Source of the DNA: Escherichia coli
GTDB taxonomy: Bacteria > Pseudomonadota > Gammaproteobacteria > Enterobacterales > Enterobacteriaceae
Assembly (NCBI RefSeq): GCF_041886205.1
Contig: NZ_CP169029.1
DNA: 64,000 bases
Direction: 5' to 3' (one strand)
Made by a program: the position numbers and the translations under genes. Positions 21,054-27,610 of this stretch are shown one piece after another. The first letter of the stretch is position 1, and each line of letters begins with the position of its first letter. A model generated the notes under the pieces. That model ran no database searches and was not told the origin of the DNA. It saw nothing but the letters and a program-made list of their open reading frames with translations.

Positions 21054-21800
21054 ATGTTAAAAAAGATACTTTTACTGGCTCTGCTTCCTGCAATCGCCTT
21101 CGCAGAGGAACTTCCTGCTCCAGTAAAAGCGATTGAAAAACAGGGCATTACAATCATCAAAACGTTCGATGCCCCCGGAGGAATGAAAGGTTATCTCGGA
21201 AAGTATCAGGATATGGGCGTCACCATCTACCTGACTCCAGATGGTAAGCACGCTATCTCTGGTTACATGTACAACGAGAAAGGTGAAAACCTGAGTAACA
21301 CACTTATCGAAAAAGAAATTTACGCACCAGCCGGACGCGAAATGTGGCAACGGATGGAACAATCCCACTGGCTCCTCGACGGTAAAAAAGACGCGCCGGT
21401 CATTGTCTACGTCTTCGCCGATCCGTTCTGCCCATATTGTAAACAGTTCTGGCAGCAGGCGCGCCCGTGGGTAGATTCTGGCAAAGTGCAGTTGAGAACA
21501 TTGTTGGTTGGGGTTATCAAACCAGAAAGTCCGGCGACAGCCGCGGCAATTCTTGCCTCCAAAGATCCCGCAAAAACCTGGCAAGAATATGAAGCCTCTG
21601 GTGGCAAGCTTAAGCTAAACGTGCCTGCAAACGTAAGTACTGAGCAAATGAAAGTGTTAAGCGATAACGAGCAACTCATGGACGATCTGGGGGCAAATGT
21701 CACACCCGCTATCTATTACATGAGTAAGGAAAATACGTTGCAACAAGCCGTGGGGTTGCCCGATCAGAAAACGCTTAATATCATTATGGGAAATAAATAA
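21054..21800 (+). CDS. dsbG: periplasmic disulfide isomerase/chaperone DsbG
   Basis: 248-aa [23 protein letters not shown]... with CPYC active site; divergent from ahpC. Confidence 0.93.
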
Positions 21801-22007
21801 AAGATAATTCATGGATGGTTGAAATATACCCCTGCTTTTCAACCATCCTTAAAACGCATGAATTGCTCGCTCTGTGCCAGATGGCTGTGCTATTTTAGAA
21901 AAACTTAATCCTGAGTTAAGCAAAAAAACATAATCAATAAAAATATATACGCAAAAACATTGATTAAGTGAATACTTCATGGAAGAAAAATATAACCGGA
22001 GTACTGT

Positions 22008-22910
22008 ATGGCCAATCTCTACGACCTGAAAAAGTTCGACTTAAATCTTCTTGTCATCTTTGAGTGCATTTATAAACACTTAAGCATAAGCAAGGCTGCT
22101 GAGTCATTATATATCACTCCATCAGCAGTGAGTCAGTCGTTACAACGCTTACGTGCGCAATTTAATGACCCTTTATTCATTCGCTCAGGAAAAGGTATCA
22201 CGCCAACTACGACAGGGTTAAATTTACACAATCACCTTGAGAAAAACCTCAGAGGTCTAGAGCAAACAATCAATCTTGTTAATAAATCGGAAGTAAAGAA
22301 AAATTTTATTATCTACGGTCCTCAGCTCATCTCCTGTTCTCATAACCGCATGCTGATCCGCTGCCTACGGCAAGATACCTCGGTCGAGATTGAGTGCCAT
22401 GACACACTTATTTCAGCCGAGAATGCTGAAGAACTGTTGGTTCATCGCAAAGCCGATCTGGTGATCACTCAAATGCCAGTGATCAGTCGTTCCGTCATTT
22501 GTATGCCATTGCATACGATTCGTAATACCCTAATTTGTAGTAATAAACATCCCCGGATTACAGATACCAGTACTTACGAACAAATTATGGAAGAAGAGTT
22601 CACCCAATTAATTTCCAAATCATCGGGGCTTGATGACATTCAAATGGAAATAGACGAGAGGTTTATAAATCGTAAAATTGCCTTTCGTGGCTCCTCTTTA
22701 TTGGCGATCATAAATAGCATTGCGATTACAGATTTGCTAGGAATAGTTCCCTTTGAACTTTATGAATCCCACCAAGAATCTCTTAATTTAAAGGAAATAA
22801 AACTAGAGCACCCCCTACCCTTGGTTAAGCTTTACATTTGTTACAACAAGACTTCTCTAAACAACCTGGCATTCTCACGATTCATTGACAGATTGAATGA
22901 TAATTCTTGA
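22008..22910 (+). CDS. ybdO: LysR-family transcriptional regulator YbdO
   Basis: 300-aa ORF with N-terminal LysR HTH (SISKAAESLYITPSAVSQSLQRLR); markedly AT-rich coding sequence. Confidence 0.9.
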   Translation: MANLYDLKKFDLNLLVIFECIYKHLSISKAAESLYITPSAVSQSLQRLRAQFNDPLFIRSGKGITPTTTGLNLHNHLEKNLRGLEQTINLVNKSEVKKNFIIYGPQLISCSHNRMLIRCLRQDTSVEIECHDTLISAENAEELLVHRKADLVITQMPVISRSVICMPLHTIRNTLICSNKHPRITDTSTYEQIMEEEFTQLISKSSGLDDIQMEIDERFINRKIAFRGSSLLAIINSIAITDLLGIVPFELYESHQESLNLKEIKLEHPLPLVKLYICYNKTSLNNLAFSRFIDRLNDNS

Positions 22911-23055
22911 TATATAGATTCAGAGAGAGGCTACATCCTTTCATTTCTATTCATTTCATCAATAAAAAATAAAATACTCTACCTTACAGGACTTACTTTA
23001 TAATTAACGACCTTATCTCACTGATCACCCTGTAACGTTCAGAGAGCGTCTTTAG

Positions 23056-24277
23056 ATGTCTATTTATAAAATTCCTCTTCCACTCAATATTCTGGAAGCT
23101 GCACGAGAGCGTATTACCTGGACACTCAATACCCTACCCCGCGTTTGTGTCTCATTTTCTGGCGGCAAAGACTCTGGTTTAATGCTGCATCTGACAGCCG
23201 ACCTTGCCCGACAAATGGGCAAAAAAATCTGCGTTTTGTTTATCGACTGGGAAGCGCAGTTCTCATGCACTATCAACTATGTTCAGTCACTACGCGAGTT
23301 TTACGCCGATGTCATCGAAGAGTTTTACTGGGTTGCGCTCCCGCTTACGACGCAAAATTCCCTTTCACAATACCAACCCGAATGGCAGTGCTGGGAACCT
23401 GATGTCGAATGGGTGCGTCAGCCCCCGCAAGATGCGATAACCGATCCTGACTTTTTCTCCTTTTACCAGCCAGGCATGACCTTCGAACAATTTGTACGTG
23501 AGTTTGCCGAATGGTTTTCACAAAAACGTCCGGCGGCGATGATGATCGGCATCCGTGCGGATGAGTCCTACAATCGTTTTGTCGCCATCGCCAGTTTAAA
23601 TAAACAACGTTTTGCCGACGATAAACCCTGGACTACAGCCGCGCCAGGCGGTCATAGCTGGTACATATACCCCATCTACGACTGGAAAGTCGCCGATATC
23701 TGGACCTGGTATGCTAAAAATCAAAGCCTCTGTAACCCACTGTATAATCTGATGTATCAGGCAGGTGTCCCTCTGCGTCATATGCGAACTTGCGAACCTT
23801 TTGGCCCGGAGCAACGGCAAGGATTATGGCTCTATCACGTCATCGAACCGGATCGCTGGGCGGCCATGTGCGCACGAGCCAGCGGAGTAAAAAGTGGCGG
23901 CATTTACGCCGGACATGACAACCATTTTTTATGGACATCGTAAAATCCTCAAGCCGGAACATTTAGACTGGCAGGAGTATGCATTATTGCTACTCAGCAG
24001 CATGCCGGTGAAAACAGCTGAACATTACCGTAATAAAATCGCCATTTATTTGCACTGGTATCAGAAAAAAGGCATCGAGGTTCCACAAACCCAACAAGGG
24101 GACATTGGCGCGAAAGATATCCCCTCCTGGCGGCGAATATGCAAAGTTTTACTCAACAACGATTACTGGTGCCGGGCATTATCATTTAGCCCCACAAAAG
24201 CGAAGAATTATCAGCGTTATAACGAACGGATAAAAGGAAAACGTCAGGAATGGGGGATACTATGCAACAACGATTAA
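23056..24277 (+). pseudogene. ybdN: ybdN (PAPS reductase-like protein) disrupted by a +1 frameshift
   Basis: frame-1 ORF 23056-23943 (295 aa) and frame-2 ORF continuing to 24277 overlap at 23894-23943 around a T6 run (23926-23931); joining them with one base removed gives 406 codons. Confidence 0.75.
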
Positions 24278-24879
24278 CGCAGGATTTAACCCAATTTCTC
24301 GCCAGCTTGCCGGAAGACGATCGCATCAAAGCGATTAATGAAATCCGCATGGCGATCCATCAGGTAAGTCCTTTTCGGGAAGAGCCGGTGGATTGTGTTT
24401 TGTGGGTCAAAAATGATCAGCTTGTGCCAAATGATTACAACCCAAACAACGTGGCACCGCCCGAGAAAAAATTGCTGAAAAAATCCATTGAAACTAATGG
24501 TTTTACCCAACCCATTGTGGTGACCAACACGACAGCCAATTCACTTGAAATCGTTGATGGTTTTCACCGCCATGAAATCGGTAAAGGATCATCATCATTA
24601 AAACTACGCTTAAAAGGTTATTTACCGGTGACCTGCCTGGAGGGGACGCGTAATCAGCGCATCGCCGCGACTATTCGTCATAATCGCGCTCGTGGACGCC
24701 ATCAAATCACCGCCATGTCGGAAATCGTCCGTGAACTTAGCCAGTTGGGATGGGACGATAATAAAATTGGCAAAGAGCTGGGAATGGACAGCGATGAAGT
24801 GCTGCGCCTGAAGCAAATTAACGGCCTGCAAGAGTTGTTTGCCGACCGTCAATATTCCCGCGCCTGGACGGTTAAATAG
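24250..24879 (+). CDS. ybdM: ParB/sulfiredoxin-like domain protein YbdM
   Basis: 209-aa ORF MGDTMQQRLTQDLTQFLASLPEDDRIKAINE...; overlaps ybdN 3' end by 28 bp. Confidence 0.88.
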   Translation: MGDTMQQRLTQDLTQFLASLPEDDRIKAINEIRMAIHQVSPFREEPVDCVLWVKNDQLVPNDYNPNNVAPPEKKLLKKSIETNGFTQPIVVTNTTANSLEIVDGFHRHEIGKGSSSLKLRLKGYLPVTCLEGTRNQRIAATIRHNRARGRHQITAMSEIVRELSQLGWDDNKIGKELGMDSDEVLRLKQINGLQELFADRQYSRAWTVK

Positions 24880-26040
24880 CTAAAGCTGGCGCAGGCGTTC
24901 AGCTGCTGCCAGCAACGTCGATTCCTTCTTGGCAAAACAGAGACGAATCAGTTTATGTGGGAAGGGATCGGCGCAAAACACCGATAGCGGAATCGCCGCT
25001 ACGCCGTGCTCCTGCGTCAGCCACTGGCAAAACTCAACATCATCCAGGGTAGATACGGCGCTGTAATCCACCAGCAAAAAGTATGTGCCTTCGCACGGTA
25101 AAATCTCCAGCCGACTTTCATTTAAGGCATTTACCAGAATATCGCGCTTCTGGCGATAAAAGTCCGGTAACGCAAGATAATGCTCAGGTTCGGCACGTAG
25201 CATATCCGCAAGCGCCAGCTGTGCCGGGGTATTCACCGAAAAGGTCAGATACTGATGTACCTTGCGAATTTCGGCACTGATGGGCGCTGGCGCAACGCAA
25301 TAACCCACTTTCCAGCCGGTCATATGATAGGTCTTGCCAAACGATGACACCGCCACCGCCCGCTCACGCAACTGCGGATGCGCCAGCACACTGGCATGGC
25401 CCTGTTGTGAAAAGTTGATGTGCTCGTAGACTTCATCGCTAATGACAAAAATCTCGTGCCCGGCGATCGCCTGGCACAAAGCGGCGAAATCAGCCTGCTG
25501 CCAGACAGTTGCACTGGGGTTATGCGGAGTGTTGAGGATCACCAGTCGGGTGCGCTCGCTTAACAATGCGGCAAATTCCTGCCAGTCAACGCGAAAATGC
25601 GGTGGTTGCAGTGCCATACGCTTCACTATTCCCCCAGAAAGCGCGATGGCGGGGGCGTAACTGTCATAGCTGGGATCAAAACAAATCACTTCATCGCCAT
25701 TGCGCACCAATGCGGTAATCGCCGCGTATAACGCCTCCGTCGCCCCTGCCGTTACGGTGATATCGCTGTCGGCATCCGGTTGATAGCCATATAGACGTTC
25801 CGTTTTCTGAGCAATCGCCTCGCTCAAGGCCTGCACACCGCTCATGGGCGCGTATTGGTTTGCCCCCTGGGCAACGTGGTACGCCAGTCGCTCTTGTAAA
25901 TAGCGCGGACCATCAAAATCAGGAAAGCCTTGCGAAAGGTTAATCGCCTGGTGTTGCTGCGCCAGCGCGCTCATCTGGGTGAAAATAGTGGTGCCAAGTT
26001 GTGGAAGTTTGCTTTGTGGAATCAGAGGGTTATTTGTCAT
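24880..26040 (-). CDS. ybdL: PLP-dependent methionine aminotransferase YbdL
   Basis: 386-aa ORF MTNNPLIPQSKLPQLGTTIFTQMSALA... aminotransferase class I fold. Confidence 0.93.
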   Translation of the reverse strand: MTNNPLIPQSKLPQLGTTIFTQMSALAQQHQAINLSQGFPDFDGPRYLQERLAYHVAQGANQYAPMSGVQALSEAIAQKTERLYGYQPDADSDITVTAGATEALYAAITALVRNGDEVICFDPSYDSYAPAIALSGGIVKRMALQPPHFRVDWQEFAALLSERTRLVILNTPHNPSATVWQQADFAALCQAIAGHEIFVISDEVYEHINFSQQGHASVLAHPQLRERAVAVSSFGKTYHMTGWKVGYCVAPAPISAEIRKVHQYLTFSVNTPAQLALADMLRAEPEHYLALPDFYRQKRDILVNALNESRLEILPCEGTYFLLVDYSAVSTLDDVEFCQWLTQEHGVAAIPLSVFCADPFPHKLIRLCFAKKESTLLAAAERLRQL

Positions 26041-27444: not shown

Positions 27445-27477
27445 TAATACCTCCGGTAATCAGGTTGCCAGGAGAGT

Positions 27478-27511
27478 GCCGGATGCGGCGTGAACGCCTT
27501 ATCCGGCCTAC
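27478..27511. repeat. REP (repetitive extragenic palindrome) element in cstA-ybdD spacer
   Basis: GCCGGATGCGGCGTGAACGCCTTATCCGGCCTAC, canonical REP sequence. Confidence 0.85.
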
Positions 27512-27530
27512 AAATGCTATCAACGTGCTC

Positions 27531-27610
27531 GGTCAGTCCCCTCGCCCCACCGGGGAGAGGGTTAGGGTGAGGGGAAACCCTCGGCGCCATGCCAACATTC
27601 GCCAACATTC
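27531..27610. repeat. GC-rich imperfect palindrome followed by a 10-bp direct tandem repeat (GCCAACATTC x2)
   Basis: tcccctcgccccaccggggagagggttagggtgagggg... then gccaacattcgccaacattc at 27591-27610. Confidence 0.6.

Follow-up and report, generated by a model that had tools for sequence, protein, structure and literature searches.

Known phosphorothioation (PT) systems pair DndC, SspD or BrxP with either DndB, a member of the ParB superfamily, or the DNA-binding DUF4007 or SspB (PMC12839542). A second described pair, IbrA/IbrB, is presented in PMC7649339 as an accessory island copy found in about 8% of marker-free genomes; that paper also cites Sandt 2002 for activation of prophage eib adhesin expression by IbrAB. 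Here we analyzed a chromosomal locus of Escherichia coli, ybdO-ybdN-ybdM (positions 21801-24879), which lies in a 64,000-nucleotide stretch of contig NZ_CP169029.1 (assembly GCF_041886205.1), the whole of which we refer to as the window. A preliminary description of this DNA had taken the three genes for a single, recently acquired AT-rich cassette. Our data instead favor, with a probability of roughly 55%, an H-NS-silenced ybdO repressor next to an old resident ybdNM pair of the IbrA/IbrB type that would carry out DNA-directed ATP chemistry without sulfur, the two units being joined by regulation.

The pair ybdNM is carried by 5,420 of 5,426 E. coli genomes. One synteny scan of a species-per-genome collection found it in 65 loci, each from a different species, spanning at least 12 genera of Enterobacteriaceae (Escherichia, Citrobacter, Salmonella, Enterobacter, Lelliottia, Phytobacter, Kosakonia, Pluralibacter, Pseudocitrobacter, Superficieibacter, Huaxiibacter and Intestinirhabdus). 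Every locus with enough flanking sequence kept the same slot, ahpC-dsbG-ybdO-ybdN-ybdM-ybdL, in which dsbG and ybdO were optional; ybdO in particular was patchily distributed and was missing from about 20 of the 65 loci. Identity to the E. coli proteins across genera was 71-86% for YbdN and 61-81% for YbdM, near the values of the neighboring YbdL (82-87%) and DsbG (69-88%), whereas YbdO reached only 49-60%. The ratio of nonsynonymous to synonymous substitution (dN/dS) was 0.03-0.11 for ybdN and ybdM, indicating purifying selection. Because the slot is shared across genera and dN/dS is this low, a recent import of ybdNM is contradicted. Moreover, the presence of ybdO does not depend on that of ybdNM, and its identity between genera (49-60% against 71-86%) is much lower: ybdO and ybdNM are separate evolutionary units.

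The gene calls of the preliminary description, their coordinates, the 28-nt overlap of ybdN and ybdM and the frameshift in ybdN were all confirmed in the sequence and its annotation. The features of the locus are as follows:

21801-22007, no strand: dsbG-ybdO spacer, the ybdO promoter region; 32.9% guanine plus cytosine (GC); H-NS-bound according to published work

22008-22910, plus strand: ybdO (citR), encoding a LysR-type regulator from the LeuO/YbeF subgroup; AT-rich and present here as a rare allele that has diverged deeply

22911-23055, no strand: ybdO-ybdN spacer, the ybdNM promoter/operator region; 33.1% GC; the most divergent part of the locus

23056-24277, plus strand: ybdN, an IbrA-type PP-loop enzyme with a domain like that of 3'-phosphoadenosine 5'-phosphosulfate (PAPS) reductase followed by DUF3440; a pseudogene here through a +1 frameshift and read as two open reading frames

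23925-23930, plus strand: T6 homopolymer in ybdN, one T longer than in other strains (T5) and so the source of the frameshift

24250-24879, plus strand: ybdM, an IbrB-type ParB/sulfiredoxin (Srx) domain with a C-terminal helix-turn-helix (HTH); intact; alternative start at 24262

24250-24277, plus strand: overlap of ybdN and ybdM; 28 nt, or 16 nt with the ybdM start at 24262

24383-24682, plus strand: mosaic patch within ybdM, over the ParB/Srx domain; divergent from other Escherichia alleles

24880-26040, minus strand: ybdL, a convergent core gene with no spacer to ybdM; right border of the conserved slot

Base composition separated the genes in the same way. Against a window GC content of 51.8%, ybdO had 39.4% (41.5% at third codon positions), the lowest of the 53 annotated coding sequences of the window (z = -3.0). 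The spacers on either side of it are not unusual taken alone, because four other intergenic regions of the window equal or exceed them in AT-richness. The values for ybdN (48.0%, 8th lowest of 53) and ybdM (47.5%, 7th lowest) corresponded to z of about -1 each and were at the level of the neighboring gene dsbG (47.1%), and the distance of their synonymous codon usage from the window mean was average. The compositional anomaly is ybdO, not the ybdO-ybdN-ybdM block; of the AT-rich three-gene module that had been described, the part concerning ybdO and its spacers stood and the part concerning ybdN and ybdM did not.

A laterally acquired, recently inserted block of all three genes, AT-rich and silenced whole by H-NS, would fit the composition of ybdO and its spacers, the published description of ybdO as horizontally transferred and H-NS-bound (PMC4720273, PMC9141747), and the predominance of the YbdN/YbdM family on mobile elements (see below). 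It is made improbable, and for ybdNM is largely refuted, by the normal composition and codon usage of ybdN and ybdM, by the synteny of the pair in 65 species with identities that track those of its neighbors, and by a ybdO that comes and goes on its own and evolves far faster; nor did the annotation around the locus show integrase, tRNA or repeat borders. The cassette idea holds for the YbdN/YbdM family, not for this chromosomal copy.

Most ybdM orthologues are annotated from the second ATG (24262), which is preceded by GGGGGA and yields a YbdM of 205 amino acids. Nearly all 65 enterobacterial loci kept the overlap geometry of ybdN and ybdM, and phage versions of the pair overlapped by 4-95 nt. 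At the other end of ybdM, its stop codon abuts that of ybdL (24877-24882), leaving zero spacer and so no room for a terminator; E. coli RNA-seq work describes ybdL-ybdM as a convergent 'excludon' (PMC12288877). A promoter and terminator scan of 21600-25200 was uninformative, as sites were no commoner than in shuffled sequence.

The identity of YbdO was clear. The protein scored 456.2 bits against the NCBIfam CitR equivalog NF047710 (cut-off 400), with YbeF (156 bits) and LeuO (103 bits) as runner-up models, and contained the Pfam domains HTH_1 and LysR_substrate. H-NS occupies the upstream and coding regions of ybdO in three E. coli strains, where substitutions are unusually many (PMC4720273), and in E. 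coli K1 it directly binds the ybdO promoter, with repression relieved by pH (PMC9141747); the published evidence for binding and repression comprises chromatin immunoprecipitation (ChIP), electrophoretic mobility shift assays and quantitative reverse-transcription PCR (PMC4720273, PMC9141747). Together with the low GC content found here, these reports uphold the earlier view of ybdO as foreign in composition and silenced by H-NS. CitR itself has a ChIP-exo peak at citR-ybdNM, and deletion of ybdO raises ybdN by 5.5 log2 units and ybdM by 2.5 log2 units (PMC9068703). The deletion also raises the cys regulon and flagellar genes, and YbdM protein is up 29-fold in E. coli with a blaCTX-M-15 plasmid (PMC8764527). 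In five E. coli genomes (H14, H19, H120, H135 and H136), an IS1 or IS5 element was seen in or beside citR/ybdN, and such insertions would be expected to disturb ybdNM repression. H-NS silencing of ybdO and CitR repression of ybdNM are already published and the locus is textbook E. coli K-12, so that the original locus finding (AT-richness, H-NS silencing and CitR repression) adds little to the literature.

The allelic history of ybdO is less ordinary. In an alignment of the window with two other E. coli strains, flanking sequence was 97-100% identical, while identity fell to 72-90% in ybdO and 59-74% in the ybdO-ybdN spacer; the dsbG-ybdO spacer was 81-93% identical to other E. coli. Strain-variable inserts resembling repetitive extragenic palindromic (REP) elements were seen between ahpF and ahpC (about 20111) and between ybdD and cstA (27461-27604); the inserts explain the low-identity stretches of the alignment at these two places. 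When the 1,255-bp ybdO region (21801-23055) was compared with 5,426 complete RefSeq E. coli genomes, identity to the window was at least 99% in 11 genomes, 95-99% in one and 90-95% in 12, as against 80-90% in 3,557 (about 86% in the listed records) and 60-80% in 1,776 (about 76-77% in the listed records). The window ybdO is a rare third allele class, shared at 99% or more by 11 of the 5,426 genomes. Synonymous divergence (dS) between E. coli ybdO alleles was 0.81-2.9, whereas ahpC gave 0.008-0.016 and ybdL and hcxA gave 0.12-0.19. We rejected decay as the source of this divergence: the reading frame is intact, and since dN/dS is only 0.03-0.085 (to 0.09) despite the high dS, ybdO is functional and constrained. 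Selection-maintained divergence of this extent within one species makes ybdO well suited to work on the evolution of silenced regulators.

Relationships among the alleles did not follow the species. The WG5 ybdO allele shared 94% identity with the allele of Escherichia sp. MOD1-EC7003 but only 80% with that of E. coli 21AR0807, and the 21AR0807 allele shared 88% with its counterpart from the SCPM-O-B-8794 lineage; by this comparison, ybdO allele classes cross species borders within Escherichia. The 300-bp patch in ybdM (24383-24682) had 80-87% identity to every Escherichia allele sampled and 85-88% to a pair of E. coli alleles, which share 98.7% with each other over the patch. The ybdO and ybdM pattern points to a mosaic made by recombination among old or foreign alleles, and the patch looks like an import from an unsampled lineage. 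No donor of either the window ybdO allele or the patch was found in the other Escherichia examined, in Citrobacter or in Salmonella.

The pair itself has the architecture of IbrA/IbrB, namely a PF01507-PF11922 protein with an adjacent, co-oriented gene for a ParB/Srx-HTH protein. The earlier assignment of YbdN/YbdM to this type was well founded: RefSeq names YbdM 'IbrB-like', and PHROG families of the same architecture matched at 260 and 236 bits. An E. coli O157 phage-derived fragment also encodes a protein 77.5% identical to YbdM. In GenBank phage records, YbdN matched 224 and YbdM 227, essentially the same set with an identical host breakdown (Flavobacterium, Mycobacterium, Streptococcus, Arthrobacter, Bacillus and others). 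The PHROG families 2302, 15645 and 2159 matched over their full length, with scores of 260-290 bits for YbdN and 236 bits for YbdM (phrog_2159).

More than 595 IMG/VR contigs encode YbdM relatives, and we examined the neighborhoods of the best 80 of these loci. A YbdN relative lay no more than three genes away on the same strand, in either order, in 69 of the 80. A conserved protein of about 130 amino acids, which we call X, accompanied the pair in 46 of the 80, as a separate gene in 29 and fused to the C-terminus of YbdM in 17; the separate gene stood directly upstream of the YbdN homologue (loci L079, L087, L096, L100, L102 and L104-L157). X carries the motifs YHPYWLWEE, W.YS.EHNL and NR.AW.G, matched no Pfam or PHROG family, and did not occur in the enterobacterial loci. 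An SNF2-like helicase (phrog_62), seen at this position in three phyla, was encoded directly upstream of the pair in phages of Flavobacterium, Lactobacillus and Streptococcus as well as in several viral contigs (L073, 4145-7009; L071, 3833-6789; L075, 3824-6770; also L119, L130, L139, L144 and L145). Other phage neighbors were further helicases, Cas4/RecE-type exonucleases, RecT, DnaB, methyltransferases and terminase. Actinophages and a Bacillus phage had a ParB-PAPS-ParB block, with a methyltransferase, just upstream of terminase, and Flavobacterium phage FCL-2 had helicase, ParB and PAPS genes in that order between the large terminase and the portal.

Plasmids carry the pair as well. A YbdN relative of 54-59% identity was encoded in 855 plasmid records from Klebsiella, E. 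coli, Shigella, Salmonella and Ralstonia, and in most of the 585 plasmids with a near DNA match the homology was confined to the 1.8-kb pair. More than 300 Klebsiella plasmids carry it; on an IncHI1B/IncFIB virulence plasmid of Klebsiella pneumoniae (L159, 8989-10850) it lies between fecIA and the salmochelin genes iroBCDN. Shigella plasmids had an intact ParB-like gene and a truncated partner. About 25 IncF plasmids of E. coli, E. fergusonii and Salmonella showed a chaperone-usher fimbrial operon, then the pair, then a LysR gene (for example L158, 8992-12554, and L160, 9001-11989); this LysR regulator is not a YbdO orthologue, with 25% identity over the N-terminal ~100 residues only, HTH included. 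Placement of the pair in conjugative-plasmid leading regions, as an anti-defense function might have it, was considered and rejected, as the three plasmid contexts examined show virulence cargo instead (fimbriae, iro/fec). Against this background, ybdNM is an old and conserved representative of a two-gene module that is frequent in phages and plasmids.

Pfam searches found the PAPS-reductase-like and ParB-like domains that had been attributed to YbdN and YbdM. An intact YbdN orthologue matched PF01507 (PAPS_reduct, 56 bits) and then PF11922 (DUF3440, 112 bits), both above cut-off. Homologues were drawn from a library of 1.84 billion representatives, in which YbdN had only 1,693 matching clusters at E <= 0.001, of which 217 reached E <= 1e-30, and conservation was scored on 58 diverse members; two of three word-indexed homologue searches returned close enterobacterial orthologues only, so the diversity comes from the representative library and IMG/VR. 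YbdN belongs by its SGGxDS PP-loop and adenine-nucleotide alpha-hydrolase fold to the PP-loop ATP pyrophosphatase superfamily. Within its SGGKDS loop, G37, K38 and S40 were invariant and S35, G36 and D39 were at least 90% conserved; D64, E66, S171 and D214 were also invariant, R167, E170 and R174 nearly so, and many tryptophans were conserved. No conserved cysteine occurred across the 58 members, and the partly conserved C112, C246, C362 and C372 did not co-vary, giving no sign of a hidden metal or persulfide site. For the DUF3440 region, Pfam gave only marginal hints to integrase SAM-like domains, and a hunt for domain fusions in longer family members turned up no informative extra domain.

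These features bear on what YbdN might do. Taken as a genuine sulfur-assimilation enzyme, that is, a PAPS or adenosine 5'-phosphosulfate (APS) reductase or a sulfurylase-like 'auxiliary metabolic gene' with a YbdM unrelated to its chemistry, YbdN would explain its annotated product name, its fold, which resembles APS/PAPS reductases and CysD, and the rise of the cys regulon on ybdNM de-repression (PMC9068703). However, the CysH models scored far below their cut-offs (TIGR02057, 34.8 against 254.2; NF002537, 34 against 154), the YbdN gene is obligately linked to one for a DNA-binding ParB/Srx protein and to DNA-metabolism genes, and E. coli already has cysH. The catalytic C-terminal cysteine motif of CysH is ECGLH, and its cysteine is missing from YbdN. 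We regard this explanation as very unlikely, and the family-wide lack of a conserved cysteine makes the PAPS reductase or sulfur-transfer role raised in the preliminary description unlikely too.

A minimal PT-like pair, or another DNA-marking pair for defense or anti-defense related to Dnd, Ssp or bacteriophage exclusion (BREX) type 4, would accord with the pairing of DndC, SspD or BrxP with DNA-binding partners in known PT systems, with the methyltransferase genes that actinophages and Bacillus phages have next to the module, and with marginal similarities: PADLOC gave only marginal domain matches, to DndC (21.8 bits), BrxP and MTase_II, and NCBIfam a weak DndC match. This too is unlikely. 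The DndC model TIGR03183 scored 22.2 bits against a cut-off of 290.4, all NCBIfam models were far below cut-off for both YbdN and YbdM, and YbdN has neither the cysteine set of DndC/SspD nor any cysteine cluster for persulfide or iron-sulfur (Fe-S) chemistry. PADLOC recognized no catalogued defense system, and no DndC/SspD-type partner gene was present in the neighborhoods examined (the window, the 65 loci and the phage and IMG/VR contexts), where DndA/D/E, SspA/C, PglZ and BrxL were all absent.

YbdM lies at the edge of the ParB families. Its Pfam ParB_N scores, 26.8 and 24.5 bits, were at or just below the gathering score of 26.3, and its predicted model, with a mean predicted local distance difference test (pLDDT) score of 86.1, has an N-terminal helical hairpin, then the ParB/Srx domain, then the HTH; the hairpin is missing from the GenBank phage versions. 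Model and profile comparisons placed YbdM in the ParB/Srx fold superfamily, with matches to ParB/Srx folds and to KorB/ParB HTH domains, and the ParB domain also matched ParB-methyltransferase fusion families. Searches of the PDB with single sequences and a YbdM profile found no solved close relative of either protein, the best matches of YbdM being ParB/Noc N-domains only (E about 1e-5 to 1e-6). A partition ParB is not indicated: TIGR00180 scored 17.3 against 58.45, the protein ends after the HTH, and no parA is nearby. Aligned to ParB/Noc by profile, YbdM has NPN at the position of ParB QPR and DGFHR at that of ParB GERR. In 54 sequences, 27 YbdM residues were invariant, many of them polar, which suggests an active site and not simply a structural scaffold.

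The main rival explanation starts from this protein. YbdM/IbrB would be a nucleotide-gated ParB-type transcription factor, like VirB or KorB, that loads on DNA and either lifts or imposes the silencing of AT-rich genes, with YbdN as an accessory that makes or senses the nucleotide ligand and does not modify DNA. Such a factor would suit the virulence-gene contexts on plasmids and the one genetic read-out in the family, the activation of silent eib genes by IbrAB (Sandt 2002, as cited in PMC7649339). However, YbdM ends after the HTH and so lacks the C-terminal dimerization domain that ParB clamps need. In place of the ParB GERR arginine motif it has DGFHR, a sequence nearer to the Srx motif. 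The module also sits beside packaging and replication genes in phages, and its strict co-inheritance with a PP-loop enzyme of invariant catalytic motifs argues that the enzyme is central. On balance we hold a VirB/KorB-like role to be possible but doubtful.

The reading we prefer, two units joined by regulation with a DNA-directed pair, can be set out as a sequence of steps. CitR and H-NS keep the ybdNM operon off, as others have shown. Once expressed, the overlapping and co-transcribed ybdN and ybdM would probably be made together as a YbdN-YbdM complex. YbdM may bring the complex to DNA through its HTH while its ParB/Srx domain uses nucleotide, and the PP-loop of YbdN could activate the alpha-phosphate of ATP for adenylyl transfer or a modification without sulfur. 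The outcome might be altered expression of otherwise silenced genes, by analogy with what has been reported genetically for IbrAB and eib. We favor DNA as the target because of the DNA-binding partner, the DNA-metabolism and methyltransferase neighbors and the precedents of DndB-DndC and DpdB-DpdA.

Several points weigh against this interpretation. The substrate class (DNA, RNA, small molecule or protein) is inferred from domain types and neighborhoods only, and the helical C-terminal DUF3440 domain of YbdN had no confident structural match. The hyper-divergence of ybdO could stem from ancient balanced alleles, from inter-species recombination or from a locally raised mutation rate. The rise of the cys regulon on ybdO deletion could hint at a sulfur link or be unrelated (PMC9068703). 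Finally, a 2022 study calls YbdM 'completely uncharacterized' and reports no more than mild effects on fitness.

A bolder extension is tentative. YbdN-YbdM/IbrA-IbrB might represent, on the chromosome, a widely mobile DNA-targeting system, a cysteine-free PP-loop adenylyltransferase with a ParB/Srx-HTH protein, to which many phages add X and the SNF2-like helicase. Such a system would mark DNA covalently in a new way, or remodel it, so that silenced genes come on. Together with YbdO it could possibly form a heritable on/off switch, in which YbdO represses the modifier and the modifier for its part blocks the YbdO sites. The control of Ag43 by OxyR and Dam is an analogue of such a repressor/modifier switch. 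If ybdNM does modify or remodel DNA and wake silenced genes, it would matter for virulence regulation and phage biology. The open interest lies in the chemistry of YbdN-YbdM: ybdNM is among the few nearly universal E. coli operons without a known activity, and the pair rides hundreds of phages and virulence plasmids of Klebsiella, E. coli and Shigella beside adhesin and siderophore genes. E. coli is an easy test bed, as citR deletion de-represses ybdNM.

In the strain studied here the module is probably off, since the sequence predicts a truncated YbdN. The lesion is a single-column T insertion, T6 at 23925-23930 against T5 in the two other aligned strains; the Prokaryotic Genome Annotation Pipeline labels this ybdN 'frameshifted', and its two fragments keep the two domains, split at the frameshift. 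The nearest RefSeq match, E. coli wlxctx60 (NZ_AP045833.1), has 100.0% reported identity over 21801-24879 bar one substitution, and among the 5,426 complete RefSeq E. coli genomes T6 was common to the window and wlxctx60 only. Of the eight genomes closest to the window (99.7-99.8% identity), six are one base shorter at ybdN, and direct inspection of strain 6EVA showed T5 and an unbroken ybdN. The assemblies of the window and wlxctx60 differ: nine substitutions separate them in the first 50 kb (15054, 17765, 20841, 21772, 23789, 31679, 31964, 44859 and 49024) and the IS150/IS421/IS1 cluster near hokE (about 50.3-53.3 kb) is arranged otherwise in wlxctx60. Because the two are not identical and yet both have T6, the extra T is somewhat more likely to be a genuine, very recent mutation than a shared homopolymer or assembly error. 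The earlier suggestion of a possibly inactive pair in this strain is partly supported: the frameshift is there in the sequence, ybdM is intact, and the lesion is absent from the closest relatives.

Comparison with known systems places the two units differently. LeuO is known to be H-NS-silenced and AT-rich, and YbdO resembles the LeuO/YbeF subgroup of LysR regulators in hidden Markov model (HMM) score and is likewise AT-rich and silenced by H-NS. It differs as a separate equivalog, CitR, whose known direct target is the adjoining ybdNM (PMC9068703). The PP-loop domain of YbdN shares its fold with the PAPS-reductase-like domain of FAD synthase, with CysD and with CysH, but YbdN has long Trp-rich insertions with conserved tryptophans, an extra helical domain of about 170 amino acids and a DNA-binding partner, and it lacks the catalytic cysteine. 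YbdM has the order of KorB, VirB, ParB and Noc, a ParB/Srx N-domain and then an HTH, and these are its best structural and profile matches; it differs in having no C-terminal dimerization domain, no ParA or KorA partner and no parS, and in DGFHR replacing GERR.

As combinations of two proteins, DndC-DndB, SspD-SspB and BrxP-DUF4007 resemble YbdN/YbdM in joining a PP-loop enzyme of the PAPS-reductase family to a ParB-superfamily or DNA-binding partner, with weak HMM similarity. In contrast to them, YbdN has no conserved cysteines or Fe-S motif and ends in DUF3440 rather than DUF4007, and ybdNM has no DndA/D/E or SspA/C partners and HMM scores far under the cut-offs. DpdA-DpdB, of 7-deazaguanine DNA modification, offers a precedent in which a ParB-like NTPase provides a DNA-modifying enzyme with energy or with DNA handling (PMC10164549, PMC12839542); DpdA, however, is a transglycosylase of the tRNA-guanine transglycosylase (TGT) family whereas YbdN is a PP-loop enzyme, and DpdB and YbdM are likened by description only. 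The closest counterpart is IbrA/IbrB of E. coli ECOR-9 and of islands in Shiga toxin-producing E. coli (STEC), the 'co-activators of prophage gene expression', in which PAPS_reduct and DUF3440 are followed by a ParB-like-HTH protein, as in YbdN/YbdM. Unlike that pair, ybdNM is fixed on the chromosome of nearly all E. coli and of many genera, under a dedicated LysR repressor.

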